From Halogeometricum borinquense DSM 11551 (GTDB lineage: Archaea > Halobacteriota > Halobacteria > Halobacteriales > Haloferacaceae), in contig NC_014731.1 of NCBI RefSeq assembly GCF_000172995.2, forward strand, positions 270,001 to 302,000: a stretch of DNA of 32,000 nt, written 5' to 3'. Positions 13,777 to 31,137 of this stretch are shown here, one piece after another. A program made the position numbers and the translations under genes. The notes under the pieces were generated by a model, which worked only from the letters and a program-made list of their open reading frames with translations, did no database searches and was not told the DNA's origin. The number at the start of each line of letters is the position of its first letter. Within the stretch, counting starts at the first letter, position 1.

Positions 13777-14472
13777 TCATTTCCAGATTGACTGGGTAGG
13801 GTGAGTTTCTGTATCCCCGGAAGCCGTGAATAGGTCCGAAATCAGGTTGTTCTCGATCCGCTGGAGAATTTCCTGGACGTTCGCCTGACTACACTCGAAT
13901 TCCGCCGCAACGTCGTCGAGGGTGGCCTCCCGAGGTCGTCGGTAGTACCCGAGTTCGTAGGCTCTCCGAAGCACCTCTCGCTGGCGGTCGCTCAGTTTGC
14001 TGAGGCTGTCCTTTCTGCCCGGGTTGTGGGTTCCTACCCGCCCGACGGTCGTGTGGACGGAATCGGGGATTTGCTCGAACCCAGCGCTGATGTTCTCCTG
14101 AGGACCGATGATCGTAACTTCTACCCCTCCGTCCTCGTGCAGCAGTATTGGACTGTCGACGACGTAGCCGTACTCCTCCGGGAGTTGGAGTAGCCGCCTT
14201 GTGTCGCTCGACGGCTCAAAGTGGATGTACGCGGAGACGGATCCGTTGATCTTCGTCACCTCATGATCGGTCGCGGTCTTGTTGGCAGACAGGATCGCTC
14301 GAATCGCGTCGGCGTCACCTTTGAACTCGTACAGCATGACGGCCGTTCCGTCACGGAGGAGTTTCGCGGAGTGTATCATGACTGGCACTACTTCATCGTG
14401 GGCATGACACGTGTCTCCCAGTGATTGAAACCATCCATCTGAGTGCTTCAATCGGATGGTTGCGCACCACAT
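13777..14472 (-). CDS. Bat-type (HTH_10 / bacterio-opsin-activator-like) transcriptional regulator
   Basis: The C-terminus LSDRQREVLRRAYELGYYRRPREATLDDVAAEFECSQANVQEILQRIENNLISDLF is the canonical haloarchaeal HTH_10 domain. The ORF begins with TTG at 14493; the first ATG is at 14472 (MWCATIRLKHSDGW). Confidence 0.82.
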   Translation of the reverse strand: MWCATIRLKHSDGWFQSLGDTCHAHDEVVPVMIHSAKLLRDGTAVMLYEFKGDADAIRAILSANKTATDHEVTKINGSVSAYIHFEPSSDTRRLLQLPEEYGYVVDSPILLHEDGGVEVTIIGPQENISAGFEQIPDSVHTTVGRVGTHNPGRKDSLSKLSDRQREVLRRAYELGYYRRPREATLDDVAAEFECSQANVQEILQRIENNLISDLFTASGDTETHPTQSIWK

Positions 14473-14540
14473 GTGACTACAGAGGGGAAACAACCTCTTA
14501 AATCATGATTGTCCTTCGACAGTTGCCCTTGTGAGCGTTT

Positions 14541-17395: not shown

Positions 17396-18545
17396 CCGTT
17401 GATCCCTCTTTGACTGTCCTTCCTACACATTCTCTGTGTAGCATATTTTCTCGAAAATATTAGACTGGCTGTGGAATTCGGAGAACTGTATTCATAATGG
17501 GCCATCTCAACCACAAAAGTACTGATATATCTACAAATTCAGGGATGGGGGTGTAATTAGGTTACTGTATTTCATATATCAAGATATGTCTGTGTAATAT
17601 GCTAATATAAAATGGAATGTGGGTTGGACGATGACCAACTTGATCACTGGGGCTTGATTACTGTGGATTATCGCAATCGTGGCGTATACGTCGAAAATGA
17701 GAGTCGACTGTTTCCACAATTTATGGGTGAACGGTCAGGTGTGCGCTCGGTGGTGACTCGTAATCCACTACCTCCATGTAGCAGAACTCACTGTCAAGCA
17801 TTACAATAATATTGCTGTCACAGTATAAAATTCCAGTATAGATTCAAAATTACACTCGAGTTGGATTCGCCCCTGCAACGCTCTCGTTAGTTCGTCCCAC
17901 TCGCTTTTAGGTTTTGTTTGGACGCACGTCTCTCTATCTCACCGTGTACAGCGCCGGGAAAGGGGATCTAAAGTTGCTCTCGGGGTGTGTTGTAGACTGG
18001 CCGTTCGGCGGTTGATGGTTCATCGCGGCTAGTGCTGACTGTACTTCATGAACCGGAGATCGGACAGGCGTCTGGGCCATTACACAGGTATGATTGTAAT
18101 ATGGTACCTCTTGACGAGCCTGATCGTTCTCTGAGAGTAAGACAACCGGAACTTCTCTTTGATTTCGTAATACGAACGAATTGCTGCCAGTTCAGTAGTT
18201 ATCAGTTGGATCCACACTGTTTTGCCAAGACTGTTTCTGACACTCAAAATCGGGGATATCTGGAAGTATATCGCTTTTATCTCGCGTTTTAGGTTTTGCT
18301 GTCGTGACAAACAGCGATACCAATCTGTTACTATTACGAAATCCGCTATGGGCTGGGACGAGTCAGATGTTCATATCAACCAAGCCGTAGCTGATTCCAC
18401 GAGGTGAATTCAGGACACTATAGATATATGATATATAATATATTTGGCCATAGGATTATTATGCCATGTATGACAATGGCACTACAGGATACGTTCGGCA
18501 ATACTGCACACACGAGTGCAGTCGTCGAAAACGGTCCGATCAAGC

Positions 18546-20168
18546 ATGAAACAGAGTAGACGAGACTACCTACGGAACACGTCGGCCCTGTTTGCACTCC
18601 TCGGTGGTGCGGGCACGGCCGCAGCAGCAGAGACTCTCCCTAAATGGGACCCCGAAGCAACCTACACCGGCGGCGACCGCGTCACCCACGACGGCTATAT
18701 TTGGGAGGCCAAGTGGTGGACGAGAGGGACCGAACCGACCACCGACGCGAGCGTCTGGAAGCAGATCAAGCCGGTTGACGACGGTGGAGACGGTCCGAAA
18801 GCGTCGTTCACCGTGAGTGACCTCGTGATCAACCCCGGTGAAACAGTCGAATTCGATGCGAGTGGGTCCGGAGATACCGCTACCCAGTTCGATTGGGATT
18901 TCGGTGACGGAACGACTGGCTCCGGCGAAGTTGTCTCCCATACATACGAATCAGCGGGCGAGTACACGGTCACGCTGACTGTCACGGACGACTCCGGTGC
19001 GACCGGTTCGACGACGAAAGTCGTCACTGCGAGTGACGGCGGCATGCCGACGGACAAGCGCGTCGTCGGCTACTACATGCAGTGGGCACAGTGGGATCGC
19101 GAGTACACCCCCGGTGACATCCCGCTGGACAAGGTTACACACGTCAACTACGCGTTCCTGACCGTAAAGCAAGACGGGTCAGTTGCGTACATCAACGAGA
19201 ACGCGGCGATGCGGGTCCTCAAGCCCGAATCGTGGCACGACCACAAAGGATTCAACGAACTCGTTGACGACCCGACGACCAAGTTCCTGTTCTCCATCGG
19301 CGGTTGGAACGACTCGAAATACTTCTCGAACGCGGCCGAAACCGAAGCAAGCCGACAGCGCTTTGCGAAGACTGCCGTCGAGATCATGCGAGAACACAAC
19401 TTCGACGGCCTCGACATCGACTGGGAGTATCCCGGCGGTGGCGGAAAATCCGGGAACATCGTCCGCGACGGCGACAAAAAGCGCTACTCCGACCTGCTGG
19501 CTGCGGTTCGGGCCGAACTCGATGCTGCTGAAGAAGAGGACGGGCAGGAGTACCTGCTGACGACTGCGCTGTCTGCCGACCCGAAGAAAAACGAAGGCCT
19601 TGATCACCAGCGTAACACTGGTCTGCTCGACTTCGTGAACGTCATGACGTACGACTTCCACGGAGCGTTCGACGACTACACGAACCACCAGAGTCCGCTG
19701 TACTTCAAGGAGAACGATCCGTCCCCGCGGGCGGAAGACTTCAATGTCGATGCCGCGATGACCTACTGGGCGAACACCGCATTCGACAGCTCACAGCTCT
19801 CGATGGGGCTTCCGTTCTACGGTCGGAGCTTCGGGAACGTCGCCAGTAGTGATAACGGTGGCCTGTACCAGTCCTTCGAGGGGTCGCCCGACGGGACGTG
19901 GGGCCAGGACAACGGTATCATGGAGTTCTGGGATATCAACCAGAACCTCGAACCAAGCTCCGAGTACGAGTACTACTGGGACGATACGGCCAAAGTGCCG
20001 TGGATATACTCGGACAGCTCCGACGTACTCGTCAGCTACGACAATCCGAAGTCTATCGGCCTCAAAACGGACTACGCTGTCGATAACGACATCGGCGGGA
20101 TGATGTTTTGGGCGTTCTCGGGCGATAAAAACGAAGTGCTACTCGACACGCTCCTCGAACATCTCTGA
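18546..20168 (+). CDS. Secreted GH18 chitinase 1: Tat signal, CBM5/12 chitin-binding domain, PKD domain, classical GH18 catalytic domain
   Basis: The Tat motif is MKQSRRDYLRNTSALFALLGGAGTAAAA (the ORF opens at GTG 18516; ATG at 18546). The CBM5/12 signature is WDPEATYTGGDRVTHDGYIWEAKWWTRGTEP. The PKD signature is FDWDFGDGTTGSGEVVSHTYESAGEYTVTLTVTDDSG. The GH18 catalytic motif is FDGLDIDWEYP, with MTYDFHG and GGMMFWAFSGD. Confidence 0.93.
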   Translation: MKQSRRDYLRNTSALFALLGGAGTAAAAETLPKWDPEATYTGGDRVTHDGYIWEAKWWTRGTEPTTDASVWKQIKPVDDGGDGPKASFTVSDLVINPGETVEFDASGSGDTATQFDWDFGDGTTGSGEVVSHTYESAGEYTVTLTVTDDSGATGSTTKVVTASDGGMPTDKRVVGYYMQWAQWDREYTPGDIPLDKVTHVNYAFLTVKQDGSVAYINENAAMRVLKPESWHDHKGFNELVDDPTTKFLFSIGGWNDSKYFSNAAETEASRQRFAKTAVEIMREHNFDGLDIDWEYPGGGGKSGNIVRDGDKKRYSDLLAAVRAELDAAEEEDGQEYLLTTALSADPKKNEGLDHQRNTGLLDFVNVMTYDFHGAFDDYTNHQSPLYFKENDPSPRAEDFNVDAAMTYWANTAFDSSQLSMGLPFYGRSFGNVASSDNGGLYQSFEGSPDGTWGQDNGIMEFWDINQNLEPSSEYEYYWDDTAKVPWIYSDSSDVLVSYDNPKSIGLKTDYAVDNDIGGMMFWAFSGDKNEVLLDTLLEHL

Positions 20169-20227
20169 GGCACGCAGAAAAACAGCGAATACGCGGAGAG
20201 AGACTCGCAAACCCCCGCACAAACTGT

Positions 20228-20251
20228 GGCGCTCCCGTGGGATGGAGCGCC
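20228..20251 (+). terminator. Hairpin GGCGCTCC-N8-GGAGCGCC downstream of chitinase 1, followed by a T-rich tract
   Basis: Read directly: an 8-bp perfect stem at 20228-20235 and 20244-20251. The sequence ttaaattcttttaaaat begins about 15 nt downstream. It separates chitinase 1 from the promoter region of chitinase 2. Confidence 0.35.
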
Positions 20252-20454
20252 GAATAGCGGCTGTTAAATTCTTTTAAAATAAACTAAAACTTATCTGCCA
20301 CAATATTTAATAATAACTGGTAAGTACAGACTCCGTCGCCAGCAAGTCGGTGAGGATGTGCAAATCGGGGGAGGCCACAGGGTTTCCGAGCAGCGCTCTC
20401 AAAAGAGAGCGATTTCGACCGAAGCACGACTCACTGACGAGGGCGGCAACACCC

Positions 20455-22167
20455 ATGAGACAGAGCAGACGAAGCTACCTACGGAATACGTCAGCCCTGC
20501 TCGCACTCCTTTCGGGGGCGAGCGCAACCGCATCGGCAGCAGAAACACCGCCAGCGTGGGAACCCGACGTTGCGTACACGGGTGGAGACCGGGTCACTCA
20601 CGACGGTTATATTTGGGAGGCCAAGTGGTGGACGAAAGGCGACGAACCAACCACCGACGCCAACATGTGGAAGCAAATCGGAGAGGCCGGCGGTGGAGGC
20701 GGCCTCAAGGCGTCGTTCACTGTGAGCGACTCCTACGTCGAGCCGGGTGTCGAGGTCGCGTTCGACGCAAGCGGGTCCAGTGGAAGCCCAACGAGTTACC
20801 AGTGGGACTTCGGCGACGGAACGACCGGCTCCGGAAAAACCACGTCGCATACCTACGAGTCGGAACAGGAGTATACGGTCACGCTCACCGTCGAAAACGA
20901 GGACGGAAGTGACACGACATCGAGACAACTCACCGTCTCGCAGAATGCGCCGTCGGACGAGTTTAGCGTCGTCGGTTACTATCCGAGTTGGAAGGGCAAC
21001 GAGGACTATCAGTACTATCCTGAGGACATACCCTTCGATAAGGTAACAGACGTACTGTACGCGTTCCTCAACGTCAAGTCGGACGGCAGTGTGGTTATTC
21101 CGGACAGCAATGTCGATCACGAGGGCCTGCTCCAGTCGTTTGCCGACCTCAAGCAGGGTCCAGCGTCGGATACGACGCTCAAACTCTCCATCGGTGGCTG
21201 GGCACTTTCACCCGGCTTCGAAGACGCCGCTGCGACCGAGGAGAACCGGACGAGATTCGCGGAGACCGCAGTCGCGCTCATGCAGAAGTACGACTTCGAC
21301 GGCATTGACATCGACTGGGAGCACCCCGGTCCGAACAGGGGGATCTGCGAGTGCGGAAGTCAGAAAGGCCCGGCGCACCACGTCAAACTCCTCAAAGCTG
21401 TTCGGGATAAACTCGACGCTGTCGAGGAAGAAGACGGGCGGACGTACTACCTCTCGGTCGCAAACGGCGGCTCTGATTGGAACGCCGCGCTCGTCAAGCA
21501 CCGCGAGGTCGAACGCGTCGTCGATGAAATCTACATGATGGCGTACGATTTCACCGGCGTCTGGCACCAGACAGCCGGCCTGAACGCGCCCATCTACGGT
21601 ACTCCGAAGGACTACCCGCCGGATGGTGACGCCCAGCAGTACACCGTCGAAACGACGCTCGAAATCTGGAAAGAGCAGGGATACTGGGTCGATTGGATGC
21701 AGTGGGAAGATTACGGAGAACCGGTCGAAGACCCCGCGAGTCTCGTCCTCGGACTCCCGTTCTACGGCCGTGGCTGTAAGGTCGAAAACGGGATTTGGGA
21801 CACCTTCTCGCTAGCCGAGTGGCAACAGGGCGACCCGAAGCATCAAAACGAAGTTATCCCGCCGGGAACGTGGAATCACCTGCTCGGCCCCGACCAAGCC
21901 AATACCGGCGCGTTCGACTACGGCGACCTCGAAGAGAACTACGAGGGTGCAGACGGCTGGGAGAAGAACGTCAACGAGCAGGGTCAGGTACCGTGGCTCT
22001 GGAACGAAGAGAAGGGAATATTCATCAGTTACGACGACCCCGCATCCATCGAAGAGAAGGTCAAACTCGCCCAATCGGAAGGTCTCGGCGGCGTCATGTT
22101 CTGGGAACTATCACAGGACTACAACGGGACGCTTCTCGACGCTATCCACGGGCAGATAAACCAATGA
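20455..22167 (+). CDS. Secreted GH18 chitinase 2: Tat signal, CBM5/12, PKD, classical GH18 catalytic domain
   Basis: The Tat motif is MRQSRRSYLRNTSALLALLSGASATASA (ATG at 20455; the ORF is open from 20350). CBM5/12 is WEPDVAYTGGDRVTHDGYIWEAKWWTKGDEP. PKD is YQWDFGDGTTGSGKTTSHTYESEQEYTVTLTVENEDG. The GH18 motif is FDGIDIDWEHP, with MAYDFTG and GGVMFWELSQD. Confidence 0.93.
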   Translation: MRQSRRSYLRNTSALLALLSGASATASAAETPPAWEPDVAYTGGDRVTHDGYIWEAKWWTKGDEPTTDANMWKQIGEAGGGGGLKASFTVSDSYVEPGVEVAFDASGSSGSPTSYQWDFGDGTTGSGKTTSHTYESEQEYTVTLTVENEDGSDTTSRQLTVSQNAPSDEFSVVGYYPSWKGNEDYQYYPEDIPFDKVTDVLYAFLNVKSDGSVVIPDSNVDHEGLLQSFADLKQGPASDTTLKLSIGGWALSPGFEDAAATEENRTRFAETAVALMQKYDFDGIDIDWEHPGPNRGICECGSQKGPAHHVKLLKAVRDKLDAVEEEDGRTYYLSVANGGSDWNAALVKHREVERVVDEIYMMAYDFTGVWHQTAGLNAPIYGTPKDYPPDGDAQQYTVETTLEIWKEQGYWVDWMQWEDYGEPVEDPASLVLGLPFYGRGCKVENGIWDTFSLAEWQQGDPKHQNEVIPPGTWNHLLGPDQANTGAFDYGDLEENYEGADGWEKNVNEQGQVPWLWNEEKGIFISYDDPASIEEKVKLAQSEGLGGVMFWELSQDYNGTLLDAIHGQINQ

Positions 22168-23603
22168 AGCGGAATCGGCGCTCACTACTCCAGTCTCTGG
22201 CGGGACTCGCCGGAGTTTCCGGTCTTTCAGCGGTCGGCGTCCAGTCTGTGGCGGCCAGCGACCCGCCGCAGTGGGACCCCGATACGGTCTACACCGACGG
22301 CGACCGCGTCGTCCACGACGCCCACATTTGGGAAGCAAAGTGGTGGACGAAAGGCGACGAGCCGACCGCCGACGCCAACATGTGGAAGGGAATCGGACCG
22401 GCGGACGGTATCGGTGATTCACCGACGGCCGCGTTCGATCTGAGCGCCACGTTCGTCCAACCCGGAACTGAAATCACGTGTGACGCCAGCGCGTCAACCG
22501 GTGATCTGAGCAGCTACGAGTGGGATTTCGGTGATGGGACGACAAAGACCGAACTCACCACTTCCCACACGTACGACACGACCGGCGAGTACACTATCTC
22601 GTTGACCGTCACCGACGCCGACGGGAACACCGCCGACGCGACGCAGAAACTTACAGTCGATGCCGACGGTGTCCCATCGGCAAACTCCATTCCGGACAGC
22701 GTCTTTGCTCCGTACACCGATCTGATGCTGGAAGATCAGCGCTCGCTCGCGGCCAACGTCGAGGCGGCCGGAACGAAGTACTTCACGCTCGCGTTCGTCC
22801 TCGCCGATGGGGATAACGAACCTGCGTGGGCCGGAAGCCAGAAGGTCGGTGAACCGAGCAACTGGCTCGATGTCGGTACGCAACTCACCGAACTCAGAAA
22901 CCAACACGGTGGTGAGGTAATCGTCTCCTTCGGCGGTCTCAACGGGACGTACCTCGCGGAAGCCATCACGAGCGCAAGCGAGTTGAAAGACGCCTACGCT
23001 ACGGTGGTCGATACGTACGATCTCACGTTCATCGACTTCGACGAGGAGTCGCTTATCAGCCGCGACGAGGAGGGAATACGTCGCCGGAACGAAGCGCTGG
23101 TCATGTTGCAGGAAGAGTATCCCGACCTACGCGTGTCGTACACACTCCCAGTCATGCCGTCGGGGTTCCCCGATCACTCCTCGAACGACGTGCTGTACGT
23201 CCTCGAGGACGCCGTCTCGAAAGGCGTCGAACTCGAAGCTGTCAACCTTATGGCCATGGACTACGGCGCTGACATCAAGCCGAACGGCGAAAACGCAATC
23301 AGCGCGGCCGAGAACGTCCACACGCAACTCGGTGAGCTCTATCCCGACAAGTCAGCTTCCGAACGCTGGAGTATGATCGGACTCACACCGATGATCGGTG
23401 TCAACGACATCGGCGGGACGTTCTATCAAGAAGCTGCCCAGCAGGTGCGTGAGTTCGCACAGCAAAACGACCTCCGATGGCTATCGTTCTGGGAACTCGT
23501 CCGCGATAACGGTGAGGGAGACAAACTCTACGAGAGTACCCTCATCGAGCAGGAACCGTTCGAATTCTCGTCCATCTTCAATCCATTCACAACCCAACAA
23601 TGA
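22164..23603 (+). CDS. Secreted GH18 chitinase 3: Tat signal, CBM5/12, PKD, compact PF-ChiA-like GH18 catalytic domain
   Basis: The start ATG at 22164 overlaps the stop of chitinase 2 (ATGA). The Tat motif is MKRNRRSLLQSLAGLAGVSGLSAVGVQSVAA. CBM5/12 is WDPDTVYTDGDRVVHDAHIWEAKWWTKGDEP, and the PKD motif is present. The catalytic part has YFTLAFVLADGDNEPAWAG, VIVSFGGLNGTYLAE, the DxDxE motif in LTFIDFDEES, RVSYTLPVMPSGF and VNLMAMDYG. This pattern matches the Pyrococcus/Thermococcus ChiA-like GH18 subgroup. Confidence 0.9.
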   Translation: MKRNRRSLLQSLAGLAGVSGLSAVGVQSVAASDPPQWDPDTVYTDGDRVVHDAHIWEAKWWTKGDEPTADANMWKGIGPADGIGDSPTAAFDLSATFVQPGTEITCDASASTGDLSSYEWDFGDGTTKTELTTSHTYDTTGEYTISLTVTDADGNTADATQKLTVDADGVPSANSIPDSVFAPYTDLMLEDQRSLAANVEAAGTKYFTLAFVLADGDNEPAWAGSQKVGEPSNWLDVGTQLTELRNQHGGEVIVSFGGLNGTYLAEAITSASELKDAYATVVDTYDLTFIDFDEESLISRDEEGIRRRNEALVMLQEEYPDLRVSYTLPVMPSGFPDHSSNDVLYVLEDAVSKGVELEAVNLMAMDYGADIKPNGENAISAAENVHTQLGELYPDKSASERWSMIGLTPMIGVNDIGGTFYQEAAQQVREFAQQNDLRWLSFWELVRDNGEGDKLYESTLIEQEPFEFSSIFNPFTTQQ

Positions 23604-25021
23604 CACAAGACCGTCGAAGCTACCTTCGGAACGTATCAGCACTCATCACGTCGGTTGCTGGCGTGAGCGCAGCATCAACTACGGTATCGGCCGAATCGCC
23701 GCCAAAATGGGACGAAACCACGCTGTATCAGAAAGGCGACCGAGTTACCCACGAGGGCTACATCTGGGAAGCCGATATCGCCTCACGAAACGCCGAACCG
23801 TCCACGGGGTCTGCCTACTGGACGAAAGTCGGTGACGACGGGGGCGGCGGTGGCGAGGACTTGACGGCGGCATTTACTGTCAGTGACTCCACCGTCACGC
23901 CGGGGACGTCAGTCTCGTTCGACGCCAGTGAATCCACTGGAACAATCGAGAGCTACGATTGGTCCTTCAGTGACGGCGCAAGCGCAACTGGCAAAACCGT
24001 CTCACACTCGTTCGCATCGACTGGTTCGTATATGGTCAAACTCACCGTCGCCGGAGCAGACGGTGGGACCGATACGACGGATAAGACCGTCACCGTCGAA
24101 TCAGCGGACGACGGAGGCGAAACTCCAACAGGAAGCCTCCCGTCAAACGTCTTCGCACCGTACGACCACGTCTCGACGAACTCGACGACGGCACCGATAG
24201 ACCACGCCGAAAAGGCGGGAACGAACTACTTCCATCTCGCCTTCGTCCTCGCAGGACCGGATGGGAAACCGGCGTGGGACGGCGATTCGAACCAACTCGT
24301 CGGTGACTCGTCTGTTGACGGCTATATCAACGACATTCACGATGCTGGCGGCGAGGCCATCATCGCCTTCGGTGGGGCGGCAGGTCCGTATCTCGCCGAC
24401 GGAACCGACGACCCGGAAGTTCTTGCCGACCGCTTCGAGACGGTCGTCGATGCATACGATGCGACCCATCTGGACATCGACGAGGAGGCGTTCGCTATGA
24501 GTACAGTCAAGCGTCGAAACAAGGCGCTCGCAACGCTTCAGGAGCGACGCCCCGAGGTCAGCGTCTCATTCACCCTGCCGACATCAACGAAGGGGCTGAC
24601 CGCACAGGGCAAAGACGTGCTTCAGGACGCCATCGACAAGGGAGTCACCATCGATACGGTGAACATCATGACGATGAACTACGGCTGGGTCGAACCGAGC
24701 GGTGACATCGTGACCAAGTCGGCCAGCAACCTTCACGACGATCTTGCCGACCTCTTCCCGGATAAATCGGCTGACGAACGCTGGAGTATGGTCGGAATCA
24801 CACCGATGATTGGTGTGAATAACGTCGGCGGGAAGTTCACGCAATCCGATGCAAAGCAGGTTCTCACCTTCGCGCAGGACAACGACATCGGCCTACTGTC
24901 GTTCTGGTCTATCGACCGAGACAACGGGAACGGATCCGGGGAGGTATCGCCCACGAAGAGCGGCATCGAACAGGAACCGTACGAGTTCTCGTCCATCTTC
25001 AACCCGTTCACGAGCGAGTGA
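23600..25021 (+). CDS. Secreted GH18 chitinase 4: Tat signal, CBM5/12, PKD, compact PF-ChiA-like GH18 catalytic domain
   Basis: The start ATG at 23600 overlaps the stop of chitinase 3 (ATGA). The Tat motif is MTQDRRSYLRNVSALITSVAGVSAAST. CBM5/12 is WDETTLYQKGDRVTHEGYIWEA, and PKD is YDWSFSDGASATGKTVSHSFASTGSYMVKLTV. The catalytic part has YFHLAFVLAGPDGKPAWDG, AIIAFGGAAGPYLAD, HLDIDEEAF, VSFTLPTSTKGL and VNIMTMNYG. The C-terminus IEQEPYEFSSIFNPFT is nearly identical to that of chitinase 3. Confidence 0.9.
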   Translation: MTQDRRSYLRNVSALITSVAGVSAASTTVSAESPPKWDETTLYQKGDRVTHEGYIWEADIASRNAEPSTGSAYWTKVGDDGGGGGEDLTAAFTVSDSTVTPGTSVSFDASESTGTIESYDWSFSDGASATGKTVSHSFASTGSYMVKLTVAGADGGTDTTDKTVTVESADDGGETPTGSLPSNVFAPYDHVSTNSTTAPIDHAEKAGTNYFHLAFVLAGPDGKPAWDGDSNQLVGDSSVDGYINDIHDAGGEAIIAFGGAAGPYLADGTDDPEVLADRFETVVDAYDATHLDIDEEAFAMSTVKRRNKALATLQERRPEVSVSFTLPTSTKGLTAQGKDVLQDAIDKGVTIDTVNIMTMNYGWVEPSGDIVTKSASNLHDDLADLFPDKSADERWSMVGITPMIGVNNVGGKFTQSDAKQVLTFAQDNDIGLLSFWSIDRDNGNGSGEVSPTKSGIEQEPYEFSSIFNPFTSE

Positions 25022-25114: not shown

Positions 25115-25858
25115 TCAGAGCAATTCTTTGGTCCGACGAACTGTCCCGAGCACCATCCCTGGAATGTTTTCTTCGAGCCGTTTGTTACTCAATCGGTCGG
25201 CGTGGCCGACAACGTACACGGCGGCTACCTCGCCGTCGTGTTCGAATGCGACTGCGACTCCGTTTTGGTCCGTGCGTTGTTCTCCTCGCTCAATGGCAAT
25301 GCCGCGCTCGCGGATATTCGACAAGTCGCCTGCGAGCACATCCGCGTCTGTGATCGTGTTGTCCGTGCGCGCGGGAAGGCCGGCAGCGTCGAGAACGTCC
25401 TCAACCTGCTCGTCAGAGAGATGTGCCAGAATCGCTTTTCCCGGCGCAGTACAGTGGAGGTGTTCGTCTATTTCGACTGTCTCAGAGCTGTCACTGGTCG
25501 ATTGGTAGAGGTTGACGCCGTAGGAGCCTTGCTTAACGAAGAGTCCCGCGGTCTCGTTGGTCGTCTCGGCCAGTTGGTCGATCAGTTCGTTCGAGGTGCG
25601 GTACAGCGGAGAGCGTCCCCGGATACGGGTTCCGAACAGGACGAATCGGTACGACAGTGAGTATTCCACGCCAACCTTTCTGACGTATCCGAGTTCGCGC
25701 AGCGTCGCGAGATGCTTATAGGTCGTACTTCGTGTGAAGTCGAGTTCGTCGGCCAGAGCCGAGACACCAACCGGACCGTCACGGTCCGCCATCGCTTCGA
25801 TGAGGGCGAACGTCTTTTTCGGCGCGGAGAGCGTCGGCACCTGACTCCATTCTGTCAT
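25115..25858 (-). CDS. IclR-family transcriptional regulator
   Basis: 247 aa, ATG at 25858. The N-terminal wHTH is KKTFALIEAMADRDGPVGVSALADELDFTRSTTYKHLATLRELGYVRK. The C-terminal IclR effector domain has TDNTITDADVLAGDLSNIRERGIAIERGEQRTDQNGVAVAF. Confidence 0.9.
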   Translation of the reverse strand: MTEWSQVPTLSAPKKTFALIEAMADRDGPVGVSALADELDFTRSTTYKHLATLRELGYVRKVGVEYSLSYRFVLFGTRIRGRSPLYRTSNELIDQLAETTNETAGLFVKQGSYGVNLYQSTSDSSETVEIDEHLHCTAPGKAILAHLSDEQVEDVLDAAGLPARTDNTITDADVLAGDLSNIRERGIAIERGEQRTDQNGVAVAFEHDGEVAAVYVVGHADRLSNKRLEENIPGMVLGTVRRTKELL

Positions 25859-26050
25859 ATCATCACATCGGACAAGAGTGGTTTAACGGTTTCGCGGAAT
25901 TTAGTGGGACCGTCGTCTATCGACCGACCGTGAGTAGGCGTTGCCGGTCATCGCTCGATCAGTGAGCGGGTCGATAAACTAGACAGTCCCGGCCAGTACT
26001 ATCGAGATTCTCGAACAGTATTGAGAATCGATGCCTGTTGTCGTTGCGGA

Positions 26051-26674
26051 TCAGCCGTTGGCGAACTGACCGATCTGGGTGTCTGATTCACCGATAGTCG
26101 TCTCCGCAACGGTACGTCGTACTGTCGTCATGCTACATTTTCCGGGTGCATACCGGCCAAGATCCGCGACCGAACCGGCGTCGTCGATATCGGCGAGGAT
26201 GGTCGCCATCGGGAAGTCGTGTGTGACCACGAGCACTTGCTCGTCTGCGTTCGAACGCTCGCAGAGTCGCTCCCATCGATCAAGTACGCGCGCACGTCCG
26301 TCTGCAAGTGGCTCCCCACCGCGCGGGAGTGGCTGTAGTACATCTACGTCAGTGTCAAGGTCGTCTGTCATGCCATCACCGAGTTCGTCGTATGCGAGGC
26401 CTTGGAACACGCCCGCATCGCGGGGACGCCACGCGGCTTCGAATTGCGGACGCGGTCCGAGGCCGGTCAGACGAACGAGTGCGGCCGTTTCCCGGGCAGC
26501 CATTGTATCTGCGGCGTACATCCGGTCGAAGTCGTACTGTGACGCCAATCGTCGGCCGATGGCCGTCACCGAATCGTATCCCGTCTCTGTCAGCGGAACT
26601 GGTACGTGTCCGTGGAGTCGGTTCTGGCGGTCCCACTCGGTCTGTCCGTGCCGTAGCAAAACGATGTCTGTCAT
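26051..26674 (-). CDS. Histidine phosphatase superfamily protein (phosphoglycerate-mutase-like)
   Basis: The RHG motif sits at the N-terminus when translation starts at ATG 26674 (MTDIVLLRHGQTEWDRQNRLHGH). A second catalytic His region is VLVVTHDFP. The ORF track extends to 26782, but that extension overlaps comA and lacks any motif. Confidence 0.85.
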   Translation of the reverse strand: MTDIVLLRHGQTEWDRQNRLHGHVPVPLTETGYDSVTAIGRRLASQYDFDRMYAADTMAARETAALVRLTGLGPRPQFEAAWRPRDAGVFQGLAYDELGDGMTDDLDTDVDVLQPLPRGGEPLADGRARVLDRWERLCERSNADEQVLVVTHDFPMATILADIDDAGSVADLGRYAPGKCSMTTVRRTVAETTIGESDTQIGQFANG

Positions 26675-26745: not shown

Positions 26746-27573
26746 TTATTCTGACCGTGTGAAGGTCGTCGTTCGCCCCCAACTCGTCGCTTTACCCCAC
26801 AATCCCGAGCGCATGCATTCGAGTTCGACGATCTGAGAGTTATCGACGAAGAGGTTCACGTTCGGCCCGAAGTTTTTGATGTACCACTCGAACATCTCCG
26901 GACCAGGTGCCTCGAACACGAGGTTCTCCATTCCCAGTTCGTTGGCGAGTTCGTAGACGACATCCGTACGCCACTCGTGGACTTCTTCGGTGATTCCCTC
27001 TGCTTCGACCATCAGAAGATCAGCACCGGCTTCGAGATGACGTTGCCCTTCTCGGATCGCCATCGACGGGTCCTGTTGACCTTCTCGTTCTAACTCGTCT
27101 GGGTCGGATGCACCGCCCGCGCCGAACTGGACGTTGATCTCGGGTTTCGGTTTGAGATTATAGTCGGCAACTAGTTCGGTCAGCGAGACCAGATCGTCAG
27201 TGTCGATAGCCAGAAAGCCACTCGAGATTTCGACGATATCGAATCCAAGCTTCTCGGCTTCGGCGACGTACGCTTCGACTTTGTCGTTATCCCGCACGAG
27301 GACGTTTTCGATGAAGCCTCCTGTCGAAACATCCACGTCGTATTCGTGGCAGATGTCGATTAGCTCGGTGACGGTGGACTGATCCATCAGCGCAAACGAT
27401 CCACCGCTGAATTTGTAGATATCGACGTACCGTCCCATCGTCTCTAGAATATCGCGCAACTCTCGCGGTCCCATGGGGTCGTAGTACGGACCTCGAATCT
27501 CGGTGATTCCCTTTGTTCGTGGTTTCGGCGGCCGGTCGTTGACGTGGAGGAAGTCGAACGCTCTCTCTGACAT
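26746..27573 (-). CDS. comA: (2R)-phospho-3-sulfolactate synthase family protein (ComA)
   Basis: 275 aa, ATG at 27573. The N-terminus FLHVNDRPPKPRTKGITEIRGPYYDPMGPRELRDILETMGRYVDIYKFSGGSFAL and the later FDIVEISSGF follow the conserved ComA (PF02679) pattern (KPR..G.T...D.G.....l.d.L...g.yiD..K...Gt; f...EvSdG). Confidence 0.88.
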   Translation of the reverse strand: MSERAFDFLHVNDRPPKPRTKGITEIRGPYYDPMGPRELRDILETMGRYVDIYKFSGGSFALMDQSTVTELIDICHEYDVDVSTGGFIENVLVRDNDKVEAYVAEAEKLGFDIVEISSGFLAIDTDDLVSLTELVADYNLKPKPEINVQFGAGGASDPDELEREGQQDPSMAIREGQRHLEAGADLLMVEAEGITEEVHEWRTDVVYELANELGMENLVFEAPGPEMFEWYIKNFGPNVNLFVDNSQIVELECMRSGLWGKATSWGRTTTFTRSE

Positions 27574-27607
27574 GTGTATTCGGTGCTACAACCCGCACCT
27601 ATTTCAA

Positions 27608-27625
27608 TTTTAGGGCGACCTAAAA
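27608..27625. promoter_or_regulatory. 18-bp palindrome TTTTAGG-GCGA-CCTAAAA overlapping the comA core promoter
   Basis: Read directly. It lies 35-52 nt upstream of the comA ATG (27573) and abuts the AT-rich TAAAATTGAAATA stretch, which is in the right place for a TATA box. It is one of three copies of the same palindrome in this cluster. Confidence 0.55.
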
Positions 27626-27696
27626 ATTAGAACGGCCAAAGAGTCACCGCTAAAGCGACGATATGAACTGTCAGACCGCGATTGCAGTCTCCCGAC

Positions 27697-29049
27697 TTAG
27701 TTCAGGAGTTCGACCAGTTCGGTGATTTCGTGTTCTTCGAGGTGCTTTACGGTATGGACGATTTCGTCACGACGCTGTTGGTCGTACCGGCCGCTGGTCA
27801 TCGTCTCGAACTTTTCTTCGACTTGTTCCCAATCCATCGGATTGTTCGGGTGGCCTTGGAAGTCGTCCTTTTGAACCTCGTGGGTTGTACCGTCGTCGAG
27901 CGTCACCGTAATGTTCGCGGGCATCTCGCCCGACTCGAAACGCTCGGTTAGTTTCGGGTCTTCCTCGACTGTGACCGTCCTGAGCAGTGATTGAACGTCG
28001 TCGCGCTGGATTCGTTCCGGATCGTAGGCGTCGTTCGTCATCTCGCGGTCGATCAACGCTGCCGCAAGCATGTACGGTAACGAGTGGTCCGCCTGTGCTT
28101 TCGTCTCGACCTCATAGCGTGATCCCTCTCCGCCGCCGATGATCAGTTTCGCTCCGTGGAACGTGTCAAGGTGAATCTCTTCGACCTGTTCGGCCTCGAT
28201 TTTCTCTCTCTCTGCGAGTTCGATGAGACCCTCGACGGCTGACTGGGCGTACGTTTCGGCGACGTAGCGTTTCGTCATCGTATCGAACACGCGCTCGCAG
28301 TTCGGATCGAGTTCGACGTCGAAGTCACCGCTGATGATCTGTTTCCAGCCTTTTTGTCCCTCGAAGAGGTTCTTCGGACCCTCCATCCCGTTGGCGGCTA
28401 ACAGACAGGAGTATACCGCATTGCGTGCGGCGTTGGCGCTGGCGATTCCTTTCCACTCGTTGATTCCGCCAGTTCGAGTTACTCGAAGCGCGTTATGTGC
28501 GGTTCCAGCGATGCCGACGGCGTTACGCAGTTGCTCGTGGTTGAGTCCGAGAATCGAACCGGCGCCTGCGGCGGCCGAGAGCACAGTGTGCGTGACGTGA
28601 TCCCAACCTTTGTCCCGAACCGGCGCATTCCAGGCGAGTTCGCCCTGCAACTCGTAAGCGACGCCGACGGCTTCTATGAGATCCTTCCCCGACGCACCGG
28701 TCTGCTCACCACAGGCGATGATACTGCCGATATTGTCGCTCGGATGGGGTGTCTCTCCCGGTGCGAGAAACGAATCCATATAATCCAGATATCGGGTTAA
28801 TGCCGTGTTGTGCATGGCGGCCTGCGGTGCCGACGCGCTTGCATCCCGACCCCAGAGCGTGCAGGAACCGCTTTCGTCTACCCCGGAAACCGTCTCAAAA
28901 ACGACTTCGACGGGTTCCGCCCCGAGTGCGCCAATGCCAATTCCCACGGAGTCGAGAACGCGCTTTTTGAGTTCCTCGACTACCTTTTCGTCAAAATTGT
29001 CGTAGTTGGCTGCCTCAACAAACTCTGCAATCGACTGTGTCGTTGCCAT
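27697..29049 (-). CDS. MmgE/PrpD-family protein (2-methylcitrate dehydratase-like fold; substrate unknown)
   Basis: 450 aa, ATG at 29049. The N-terminus AEFVEAANYDNFDEKVVEELKKRVLDSVGIGIGAL, the central HPSDNIGSIIACGE, and the overall length and composition are characteristic of MmgE/PrpD proteins. Confidence 0.88.
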   Translation of the reverse strand: MATTQSIAEFVEAANYDNFDEKVVEELKKRVLDSVGIGIGALGAEPVEVVFETVSGVDESGSCTLWGRDASASAPQAAMHNTALTRYLDYMDSFLAPGETPHPSDNIGSIIACGEQTGASGKDLIEAVGVAYELQGELAWNAPVRDKGWDHVTHTVLSAAAGAGSILGLNHEQLRNAVGIAGTAHNALRVTRTGGINEWKGIASANAARNAVYSCLLAANGMEGPKNLFEGQKGWKQIISGDFDVELDPNCERVFDTMTKRYVAETYAQSAVEGLIELAEREKIEAEQVEEIHLDTFHGAKLIIGGGEGSRYEVETKAQADHSLPYMLAAALIDREMTNDAYDPERIQRDDVQSLLRTVTVEEDPKLTERFESGEMPANITVTLDDGTTHEVQKDDFQGHPNNPMDWEQVEEKFETMTSGRYDQQRRDEIVHTVKHLEEHEITELVELLN

Positions 29050-29052
29050 ATG

Positions 29053-29070
29053 TTTTAGGCTCGCCTAAAA
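29053..29070. promoter_or_regulatory. 18-bp palindrome TTTTAGG-CTCG-CCTAAAA between the TATA-like element and the start codon of the PrpD-family gene
   Basis: Read directly. It starts 4 nt upstream of the ATG (29049). On the coding strand, TTTTTAGC (29071-29078) sits at about -29 to -22, which fits a leaderless transcript with the palindrome covering the initiation region. Confidence 0.55.
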
Positions 29071-29263
29071 GCTAAAAATCTTTCTGGCTCAGTAAAGGCC
29101 AACGTCGGAATATCGATAGAAACCATGGATGGCTTCGTTGGCGGCGGAGTCTATCAGTCTCCCGTGTAACAACGCTCGTGAATCACCTCCCATCTTAGTT
29201 GTGTAAATGTATCCTACGCAATAGTTATATTTGTCGGCCAGCTGAGGGTTAGGGAAGTCGTTA

Positions 29264-29281
29264 TTTTAGGCTGGCCTAAAA
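29264..29281. promoter_or_regulatory. 18-bp palindrome TTTTAGG-CTGG-CCTAAAA in the core promoter of the substrate-binding-protein gene
   Basis: Read directly. It ends 8 nt upstream of ATG 29289 (14 nt upstream of the second ATG at 29295). The left half-site occupies the position expected for a TATA box of a leaderless mRNA. Confidence 0.55.
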
Positions 29282-29288
29282 TAGTGCT

Positions 29289-30560
29289 ATGCGTATGCTG
29301 AGAGAAACTTCGACACGAAGAGACGTTCTCAAGGGCGGCAGTGCACTCATTGGGAGTGGATTCCTCGCCGGTTGCACCAGTAGTGGACAGTCTACACCTC
29401 CCTCCGATTCGACATCATCAGACTCCTCGAGGGGGACCTCAACCGATACTGCGACAACTGAGCAGTCCTATTCGGTGTCGCTTGATCCGGTCGGAACGAT
29501 CCCCTTCGAGCAACCACCCGAAACGGTCGTTAGCGGTTGGGGATTTGTCGGTGACGTGTTGATGGCGCTCGGGCAAGCCGACCGTATCGTCGGGATGTCC
29601 CGACCTGGTTTCTGGTTTCAAGGGTTCTACGAACTTCTTCCGGGCGTCTCAATGCGTGATACGACCGCGATCCCCAACACCGTCTCGAAGGGGTACAGTC
29701 TCAACGAGGAGTTGCTCTACGAACTCGACCCGGATCTGCTGGCAACGGATCCCAACCGATTCATCGCATGGTATGGGAGTGATACCGCGACCGTCGAGTC
29801 ACTCGTTGACGACATCGCGCCGTTCTTCGGCAACGAAAGCCGATCGAAACGTCCCTCTGGATGGCCGAACTGGCCGACTGGTGAGGACTACGACTACTAC
29901 GCTATCCCAGAGTTTGTCGAGCGATACGGACAGGTCTTTCAGGAGCAAAAGCGTGCCACGGCGATGGTAGACCTCTACGAAACCACTCTTGACGATATCA
30001 CATCACGTCTCCCACCGCTGGACGAGCGCCCGACCGTTGGTGTACTGAGTGCGTTCACGAATCCGGAGAACAGCGGTCACTTCGGCGTCTCCAACCCGAT
30101 TCCCGCTCTCGATGCGACCCACGAACTCAAACACTACGGGGACTTGGGAGTTGTTGACGCGTTCGCGGAGCAGTACGGGGAGGAAAGAGGCCATTACGAT
30201 CTCACAGTCGGCTTCGAAGGGCTGCTTGCGGTTGACCCGGACGTTCTGATCTTCGATGAGGCGGTGAACGCACTCGGCGGACAGACCGTCTACGGAAACA
30301 CGAAAGCCTACGAGCGGACCCTCGAACTTCTCCGTACCGACGATATCGGCCAGCGACTCACCGCAGTCCAAAACGACCGGTTGTATCCCGGCGGAACGGG
30401 ATCACAGGGGCCGATTATTAATCTCTTCCAGACCGAAATGCTCGCAAAACAGCTGTATCCAGCGGAGTTCGGTCCGTGGCGCGGACTCGGTGAGACGCCT
30501 ACGGACGAGCAACTGTTCGACCGTCAACGGGTTGCAGACATCATCAACGGGGATCTCTGA
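29289..30560 (+). CDS. ABC-transporter substrate-binding lipoprotein (Tat signal plus lipobox; FecB/BtuF-like periplasmic-binding-protein class)
   Basis: MRMLRETSTRRDVLKGGSALIGSGFLAGCTSS contains a twin-arginine motif and an LAGC lipobox, followed by a Ser/Thr-rich linker. The body (LDPDLL..., VDPDVLIFDE, LTAVQNDRLY) resembles cluster-A siderophore/cobalamin-type binding proteins. No permease or ATPase gene is adjacent. The start may be 29295. Confidence 0.82.
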   Translation: MRMLRETSTRRDVLKGGSALIGSGFLAGCTSSGQSTPPSDSTSSDSSRGTSTDTATTEQSYSVSLDPVGTIPFEQPPETVVSGWGFVGDVLMALGQADRIVGMSRPGFWFQGFYELLPGVSMRDTTAIPNTVSKGYSLNEELLYELDPDLLATDPNRFIAWYGSDTATVESLVDDIAPFFGNESRSKRPSGWPNWPTGEDYDYYAIPEFVERYGQVFQEQKRATAMVDLYETTLDDITSRLPPLDERPTVGVLSAFTNPENSGHFGVSNPIPALDATHELKHYGDLGVVDAFAEQYGEERGHYDLTVGFEGLLAVDPDVLIFDEAVNALGGQTVYGNTKAYERTLELLRTDDIGQRLTAVQNDRLYPGGTGSQGPIINLFQTEMLAKQLYPAEFGPWRGLGETPTDEQLFDRQRVADIINGDL

Positions 30561-30579: not shown

Positions 30580-31137
30580 TTACTCGAAGCGGTTCGATAT
30601 CGTCTCTTCGTCGGGCGTCCAGCCGATGAACTCGCCACCCTCGAACGGGAGATCGATGGAGGCGATATAGTTGCACAGTCCGACGTAGAAGTCCACGAGG
30701 AGGCCGAGCGCAACAATCTCGGGCGGTGAGTACTGCCGAGTGAGTGCCTCGTGTATCTGGTCGGTGACTGTTCCGGATTCGACGGCCCGAGCGTACTGGA
30801 GCAGGACGTACTCGGTGTCGTCGAACACTGAGAGGTCACCGCCACCGATCGCTTGCATTTCCTCGACTGTAACGCCCTTGTCGCGGGCGATATCGACGTG
30901 TTGGTGCCACTCGTAGCGAGCGCCGCGAGCCCTTGCGACGGTGAGGATCACCAGTTCTTTGCGTCTCTCTCCGAGTTGATCGTACAGCGTGTTCAAATAC
31001 TCCAGCGTCGCTTCGAGAACTTCGGGGTTGTGCGCCCATGCACGGAAGATGTGGCGGTCGCCCAGATAGTCGTCGCTGAACAGGTAGTGGTACTCCTCCG
31101 GGATTTCGTCTAACTCAAGTAGCGGAAGTCGTGACAT
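30580..31137 (-). CDS. Carboxymuconolactone decarboxylase (CMD/AhpD-like) family protein
   Basis: 185 aa, ATG at 31137. RKELVILTVARARGARYEWHQHVDIARDKGVTVEEMQAI matches the CMD-family core (re...l.va...g..yew..H...a...Glt.eei.ai). Confidence 0.82.
   Translation of the reverse strand: MSRLPLLELDEIPEEYHYLFSDDYLGDRHIFRAWAHNPEVLEATLEYLNTLYDQLGERRKELVILTVARARGARYEWHQHVDIARDKGVTVEEMQAIGGGDLSVFDDTEYVLLQYARAVESGTVTDQIHEALTRQYSPPEIVALGLLVDFYVGLCNYIASIDLPFEGGEFIGWTPDEETISNRFE

Follow-up and report, generated by a model that had tools for sequence, protein, structure and literature searches.

The closest described counterpart of the element analysed here comes from Haloferax volcanii, in which the iron-dependent DtxR-family repressor TroR (HVO_0863) recognises the motif TTTAGGC-NNN-CCTAAAANAN, that is, TTTAGGC-NNN-CCTAAAA. 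Three lines of evidence underlie the motif, namely chromatin immunoprecipitation sequencing (ChIP-seq), reporter fusions and RNA sequencing (RNA-seq) of a troR deletion strain (Martinez Pastor et al., NAR 2023/24, PMC10783522). In this organism TroR gave 36 ChIP-seq peaks, the motif occurs 206 times genome-wide and many targets carry several copies of the box (PMC10783522). At the promoter Phvo_B0047, either of two boxes is enough for iron repression and mutating both abolishes it, and iron control is lost in the troR deletion; cbiCE is among the TroR peaks, and dpsA is activated by TroR (PMC10783522). The manganese regulator SirR of the same species has a box of its own, TTTwGA-N4-TCwAAA, and each of 304 haloarchaeal genomes encodes between one and six DtxR paralogs (PMC10783522). 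The present analysis concerns a stretch of 32,000 nucleotides from Halogeometricum borinquense DSM 11551 (NC_014731.1, positions 270,001 to 302,000; hereafter the window), which holds three copies of the 18-bp palindrome TTTTAGG-N4-CCTAAAA. Because their half-sites, their spacing and their inner GG/CC bases match the published motif, the three palindromes are very probably operators for an iron-sensing DtxR-family repressor, most likely the ortholog of H. volcanii TroR.

The palindromes are distributed over three transcription units, those of an MmgE/PrpD-family (PrpD-like) gene, of comA and of a substrate-binding lipoprotein gene, and each promoter contains a single box located 4-52 nt from the start codon. 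Box positions are counted from the A of each start codon, and BRE denotes the recognition element of transcription factor B (TFB).

27608..27625, no strand: predicted iron box 1, TTTTAGGGCGACCTAAAA, at -52..-35 from the comA start, abutting a TATA-like element on its upstream (BRE) side
27600..27607, minus strand: putative TATA-like element of the comA promoter, TTGAAATA as read on the minus strand
29053..29070, no strand: predicted iron box 2, TTTTAGGCTCGCCTAAAA, at -21..-4 relative to the PrpD-like start codon, flanked by the TATA-like element and the presumed leaderless start
29073..29079, minus strand: putative TATA-like element of the PrpD-like promoter, ATTTTTA as read on the minus strand, at -30..-24
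29264..29281, no strand: predicted iron box 3, TTTTAGGCTGGCCTAAAA, at -25..-8 from the binding-protein start codon

Every half-site base specified by the TroR consensus is present in all three boxes, two of which also carry the C that follows TTTAGG, and the inner half-site bases are GG/CC in each case, as in the TroR motif and not GA/TC as in that of SirR. A sequence-only reading of the window had described three perfect 7+7 palindromes with a 4-nt spacer, and an exact pattern search confirmed them; the pattern had a mean of 0.00 matches in dinucleotide-preserving shuffles, none of the 100 containing any. The same reading had found no other copy in the 32 kb, which also holds. No further site appeared at up to two mismatches, and relaxing the search to three added a single AT-rich site with three mismatches at 20272. 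The half-site TTTTAGG occurs eight times in the window against 1.07 expected, six of the eight lying inside the three palindromes. The earlier gene calls around the boxes are correct, and the statement that two of the boxes come within 4-14 nt of a start codon is about right for boxes 2 and 3. In the Halogeometricum assembly GCA_000337855.1 the window lies on contig AOHT01000017.1, and its ComA has 99% identity to that of H. borinquense.

Comparison of related loci demonstrated that both the boxes and their placement are conserved. The sample comprised 80 haloarchaeal loci around ComA homologs, some 64 of which retain the PrpD-like/ComA pair. The PrpD-like and comA promoters of nearly all loci are of the plain leaderless type, lacking a palindrome and having a TATA-like element at about -31..-26; the ATTTTTA of the window matches the cTTTTg found at this position in most of some 60 box-free PrpD promoters. 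The boxed cassette is restricted to the closest relatives of the one in the window, those of Halorientalis pallida (L124), Halovenus rubra (L125) and a plasmid of Halorientalis litorea (L205). In all four genomes the comA box occupies -52/-53..-35/-36 and is followed directly by a TATA-like octamer, ATACAAAT, ATATAAAT and CTACAAAT in L124, L125 and L205, respectively, which align with TTGAAATA. The box proximal to the PrpD-like gene ends 2-3 nt before the ATG in the three relatives, where a second copy lies 34-36 bp upstream, so that the two boxes flank the TATA-like element. In the window the best match at the place of this second copy has 6 mismatches; this distal box has been lost there.

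The positions of the boxes are identical in these four genomes, which belong to three genera, while the flanking sequences differ. This supports the earlier proposal that the palindromes are bound by a dimeric regulator and sit on or beside the core promoters of three transcription units. Since the half-sites are invariant and the spacer varies freely across genomes, the boxes are conserved elements read by a protein. This pattern also speaks against a purely structural role, in which the palindromes would act as RNA or DNA structures (hairpins, terminators or a generic repeat) and not as operators. Box 1 does contain runs of T and follows the PrpD-like stop codon at a distance of 72 nt, and the region of box 3 folds with -10.2 kcal/mol (z-score -2.2). 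Boxes 1 and 2, however, show no better folding than shuffled sequence (z-scores -1.0 and -0.16), and boxes 2 and 3 precede the presumed transcript starts, so that a structural role deserves next to no credence.

The genes served by the boxes, together with the regulator gene that adjoins them, are as follows.

25115-25858, minus strand: IclR-family regulator gene, directly downstream of the phosphatase gene
26051-26674, minus strand: histidine-phosphatase-family gene (Pfam His_Phos_1; 207 amino acids with the start of the deposited gene calls)
26746-27573, minus strand: ComA-family (phosphosulfolactate synthase) gene (Pfam ComA, E = 9e-77), predicted box target
27697-29049, minus strand: MmgE/PrpD-family gene (Pfam MmgE_PrpD_N and MmgE_PrpD_C), predicted box target
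29289-30560, plus strand: Peripla_BP_2 (siderophore/haem/corrinoid-type) substrate-binding lipoprotein gene (Pfam Peripla_BP_2, Tat signal, lipobox), predicted box target

The phosphatase gene is probably co-transcribed with comA; the 71-nt gap between them has no box. Its product resembles the CobC-type alpha-ribazole phosphatase, and the PrpD-like protein is distant from the solved members of its family, cis-aconitate decarboxylase, 2-methylcitrate dehydratase and iminodisuccinate epimerase. For the binding protein, the NCBI call of 361 amino acids (L001 8490-9575) starts downstream of a twin-arginine signal (RRDVLK) and a lipobox (LAGC); a start giving 421/423 amino acids (window 29289-29297) fits the protein better and places the box at the promoter. 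Adjoining the binding-protein gene is a CMD-family gene (30580-31137) without a box of its own.

Several features of the cassette suggest that it has been transferred horizontally together with its operators. The ComA of the window is 93% identical to that of Halorientalis pallida and 91% identical to that of Halovenus rubra, and identity among the boxed cassettes is 91-93% across different families, compared with 72-84% for the other 78 loci. A histidine-phosphatase gene is part of the cluster only in the four box-bearing loci, and in Halorientalis litorea the cassette is plasmid-borne. Just beyond the cassette of the window, about 5 kb past the window end, lie genes for a DDE transposase and a UvrD-type helicase (L001 3435-5024). 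A UvrD-helicase gene is also a neighbour of the homologous binding-protein gene on plasmid pHmuk01 of Halomicrobium mukohataei (L328). The PrpD-like gene of Halovenus rubra (L125 8603-9863) is split into two frames and contains an ambiguous base, possibly owing to a frameshift or a sequencing error. A search of a plasmid collection with the window returned only comA fragments of other genera. Among the loci no conserved neighbours were found that would explain the PrpD-like/ComA pathway: a thiamine-diphosphate enzyme (14 loci) and oxidoreductases (10-12 loci), identified by reading their N termini and not by Pfam, recur beside the pair and are absent from the boxed cassettes.

The same box also precedes iron-uptake genes outside the cassette. 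In 1.42 Mb of haloarchaeal DNA there are 13 copies of the core TTAGG-N4-CCTAA, where base composition predicts 0.6; position 2 is T and position 17 is A in 11 of these sites, and most have a fuller T/A extension. Homologs of the Peripla_BP_2 gene in seven loci (L124, L134, L204, L326, L327, L328 and L329) carry two or three boxes, of which the proximal one stops 2-5 nt short of the ATG; L124 and Halomicrococcus (L134) have paired boxes 36 bp apart, the distance from the proximal box to the ATG being 3 nt. Among annotated homologs of the binding protein, the closest (44-47% identity) are encoded on Haloarcula hispanica pHH400, Halomicrobium mukohataei pHmuk01 and a Halococcus dombrowskii plasmid, and each of the three shows the same layout, with two boxes immediately preceding the gene. 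H. volcanii pHV3 carries the perfect boxes TTTTAGGCCGGCCTAAAA and TTTTAGGATAGCCTAAAA ahead of the validated dat/iuc siderophore operon; on this plasmid, a pair of boxes 36 bp apart ends 3 nt before a Peripla_BP_2 gene whose product is 33% identical to that of the window. On pHV4, hutH adjoins the divergent binding-protein genes HVO_RS04330 and HVO_RS04340, whose intergenic region holds three boxes with one to three mismatches. One of the encoded proteins is 34% identical to the binding protein of the window, the boxed H. volcanii homologs, including HVO_RS04340, standing at 33-34%. Because of the adjacent 'HVO_A0556 family' gene and hutH, this pair is taken to be HVO_A0557/8, a named TroR peak (PMC10783522).

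The boxed loci also showed recurrent neighbours. A HEAT-repeat protein is encoded directly upstream of the boxed Peripla_BP_2 genes in L124 (11681-12682), L134 (20404-20640), L205 (18734-19132) and L329 (1712-2713); that of L124 has a C-terminal, zinc-ribbon-like CxxC pair, and its gene precedes a tandem array of five binding-protein genes that has neither a permease nor an ATPase gene nearby. Perfect single boxes at a homologous position occur in L140 (14987-15004) and L149 (7535-7552) beside a gene for an HTH_10 (Bat-type) regulator, the partner on the opposite side being a CMD-family gene in L140 and a DUF2249-like gene in L149, these family labels all coming from a reading of the sequences. 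HTH_10 proteins were considered as readers of the box and rejected: the HTH_10 protein of the window (13777-14493) is no more than a distant relative of these, and none accompanies the boxed cassettes. A NikR-like gene in L124 (5469-5900, labelled from its N terminus) was set aside because it is not conserved in the other cassettes.

A scan of metagenomes for two boxes 17-23 nt apart returned at least 120 loci (L206-L325), and the figures that follow refer to the matches listed. Of these contigs, 45 are of high GC content and haloarchaeal in character, and 75 are of low GC content (31-50%), many of them from marine samples; the latter are probably archaeal, given that their boxes stand in TATA-type promoters with lipoprotein signals downstream. 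Nearly all matches have a TATA-like element between the boxes, and an open reading frame starts within a few nt of the proximal box. Measured from centre to centre, the boxes stand 36 bp apart in 29 of 40 high-GC cases, the low-GC contigs favouring 32-35 bp and not 36, and the first spacer base is C in 59% of the high-GC boxes, in agreement with the published TTTAGGC. Two loci, L268 and L314, were discarded as false positives consisting of TTAGG(G) tandem repeats, and counting of the bare 18-mer was given up, the hits listed for it in viral contigs being chance matches in unrelated AT-rich DNA. When ten downstream proteins were put through Pfam, nine proved to be iron transport or regulation proteins: two Peripla_BP_2, one FecCD, one SBP_bac_6, two DtxR-family repressors with a FeoA domain, one FTR1, one transferrin-like binding protein and one FeoB. 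The tenth, a haloarchaeal protein, carries the function-unassigned domain DUF7551/7552. On the low-GC contigs the paired boxes precede genes for DtxR+FeoA regulators, FTR1, FeoB and transferrin-like lipoproteins. The box is, in short, associated with iron genes, and two boxes flanking a TATA element represent a conserved design of iron-repressed promoters in archaea, from haloarchaea to the low-GC contigs taken as archaeal. The three copies of the window, which had been regarded as defining a small regulon, are instead members of a class of TroR iron boxes present before iron-uptake genes in many haloarchaeal genera and in metagenomes.

Another DtxR paralog, Idr-like and with a FeoA/SH3 domain, could read the boxes in place of the TroR ortholog, or the boxes could respond to another metal, through cobalt/corrinoid status or manganese. 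Among the matches listed, the paired boxes upstream of DtxR genes with a FeoA domain on low-GC archaeal contigs suggest autoregulation by such a paralog. Corrinoid status would fit the resemblance of the phosphatase to the CobC type and a PduO-type adenosyltransferase-like open reading frame downstream of the boxed binding-protein array of L124, labelled from its N terminus and not by Pfam; the listing of cbiCE as a TroR peak points the same way (PMC10783522). In the only haloarchaeon tested, however, TroR bound this exact box and iron control was gone in the troR deletion (PMC10783522). The SirR box differs at the inner half-site bases, which tells against manganese, and the metagenome genes listed beside the box are overwhelmingly iron transporters. 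A different paralog or metal is thus quite unlikely, and an iron-responsive TroR ortholog is the preferred reader. The sole DtxR-family gene in the fetched haloarchaeal genome loci (L151 17072-18513) was tried as a troR candidate and rejected: it is followed by two TMEM165/GDT1-type half-genes, which is the arrangement of sirR-hvo_0820 in H. volcanii, and it is a SirR ortholog.

The sequence-only reading had favoured a different regulator, the product of the adjacent IclR-family gene, which would bind the palindromes and control a private regulon of three promoters in response to pathway metabolites. The gene lies directly downstream of the phosphatase gene, and IclR-family proteins are known to bind palindromes of about this size. 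Autoregulation is common in this family, but the region upstream of the IclR gene (25859-26050) contains no box, its best match having 6 mismatches. A different palindrome, GATTCTC-N10-GAGAATC, is present there instead (26006-26029); it could be the operator of the IclR gene itself or a terminator. Together with the overlapping TCGAGATTCTCGA it lies at 26002-26029, between the phosphatase stop and the IclR start, and it does not occur in other intergenic regions of the window. Across genomes the association breaks down as well: no IclR homolog accompanies the boxed cassette at a distance of up to 10-20 kb, either in L124 and L125 (by tblastn) or in L205 (by annotation), and the box stands before iron genes in many genomes without an IclR gene nearby. 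Adjacency alone is weak evidence, because in H. volcanii the IclR gene xacR adjoins the TroR-controlled siderophore operon and yet regulates pentose genes. The assignment to the IclR protein was accordingly abandoned as highly improbable, and its correction is of some general use: a neighbouring IclR gene is tempting but not automatically the regulator. On its other side, the IclR gene is bordered by a chitinase cluster (18516-25021, plus strand) encoding two GH18 chitinases with PKD and CBM5/12 domains and two further PKD/CBM proteins. Standing between this cluster and the iron-box cassette, the IclR gene may functionally be part of the former.

In haloarchaeal promoters the TATA element is centred near -27 with the BRE just upstream, and haloarchaeal transcripts are mostly leaderless, which allows a mechanism to be proposed for TroR at the three promoters. 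When iron is sufficient, a metal-loaded TroR dimer would occupy each 18-bp box with one helix-turn-helix per TTTAGG half-site, the half-site centres being 11 bp apart. At the PrpD-like promoter, a dimer at -21..-4 would cover the stretch from the TATA element to the leaderless start and block polymerase recruitment or promoter opening; at the binding-protein promoter, a dimer at -25..-8 would overlap the TATA/start region with the same effect. At the comA promoter, the dimer at -52..-35 would sit on the BRE side of the TATA element and block TFB, the sign of regulation here being the least certain step. When iron becomes scarce, the repressor would leave, and the PrpD-like, comA plus phosphatase and binding-protein units would be derepressed with the rest of the iron regulon. 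It had been suggested earlier that the half-site is itself TATA-like, so that a bound regulator would compete directly with the TATA-binding protein and TFB. Occlusion is plausible; the half-site, on the other hand, is generally not the TATA box. Within the window the two coincide only at the binding-protein promoter, where the left half of box 3 overlaps a TATA-like run, TTATTTTA, at 29261-29268, and related promoters have a separate TATA-like element beside or between the boxes.

A number of points weigh against the identification of the three palindromes as TroR operators. PrpD-like, ComA and histidine-phosphatase proteins have no known role in iron metabolism, and the link to iron function within the window runs through the binding protein, whose homolog on pHV4 belongs to the pair taken as the HVO_A0557/8 target. 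The main text of the TroR paper makes no mention of the three genes (PMC10783522), nor does an iron-starvation proteome paper mention PrpD or ComA homologs. Most haloarchaea express the PrpD-like/ComA pair from promoters without a box. The boxes of the TroR paper lie about 100 nt upstream of start codons, compared with 4-52 nt in the window (PMC10783522). Since TroR activates dpsA (PMC10783522), the comA box, being upstream of the TATA element, could in principle serve activation and not repression. It may also be that other archaea use a different DtxR paralog, one carrying a FeoA domain, to recognise this box. Finally, a troR ortholog in the source genome, iron-dependent binding and the sign of regulation at each promoter are elements that we infer.

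With these reservations, the type of element at this locus was already known and a binding-protein gene is an expected target, and what appears to be new, on the basis of the sequence comparisons, is a PrpD-like/ComA/histidine-phosphatase cassette under iron control. The finding adds a further species and further target genes to the known DtxR/TroR iron regulon; it does not introduce a new regulatory system. It also provides a functional hint for the widespread haloarchaeal PrpD-like/ComA pair, in that one transferred version, to which a phosphatase has been added, appears to be wired to iron status. As to function, the cassette and the orphan siderophore-type binding protein might together constitute a horizontally mobile module, induced by iron starvation, that makes and perhaps re-imports a novel small molecule built from phosphoenolpyruvate (sulfolactate-like or a carboxylate), used either to acquire iron or to spare iron-dependent enzymes. 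This proposal is a tentative one, and we regard it as rather doubtful. If it were true, iron status would be linked to sulfonate and organic-acid metabolism in haloarchaea in a way that has not been described.

In relation to known systems, the boxes share with the bacterial DtxR/IdeR operators, TTAGGTTAGCCTAACCTAA, the outer TTAGG...CCTAA arms and metal-dependent repression at a promoter. In the bacterial operators the arms are 9 nt apart and two dimers bind on opposite faces, whereas the arms of the window boxes are 4 nt apart and lie in archaeal TATA/BRE promoters. IclR-family operators, such as the IclR box of E. coli, are palindromes of similar length that are also found near promoters; the window boxes differ in that their occurrence across genomes does not follow that of IclR genes, and the IclR gene present here is without one. 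The SirR box has the same overall layout, being a palindrome with T-rich half-sites of 6-7 nt and a 4-nt spacer that is read by a protein of the same family, and it differs in its inner bases, GA/TC there and GG/CC in the window boxes. Compared with the TroR system, the promoters of the window carry single boxes nearer to the start codon than those described in H. volcanii, and the PrpD-like gene and comA plus phosphatase are not reported TroR targets. The likeness to TroR comprises the half-sites TTTAGG/CCTAAA, the 4-nt spacer, the preferred C as its first base and the location at promoters, often in two copies about 30-36 bp apart, and it includes Peripla_BP_2 targets homologous to that of the window in H. 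volcanii, which belongs, like the organism analysed here, to the Haloferacaceae.

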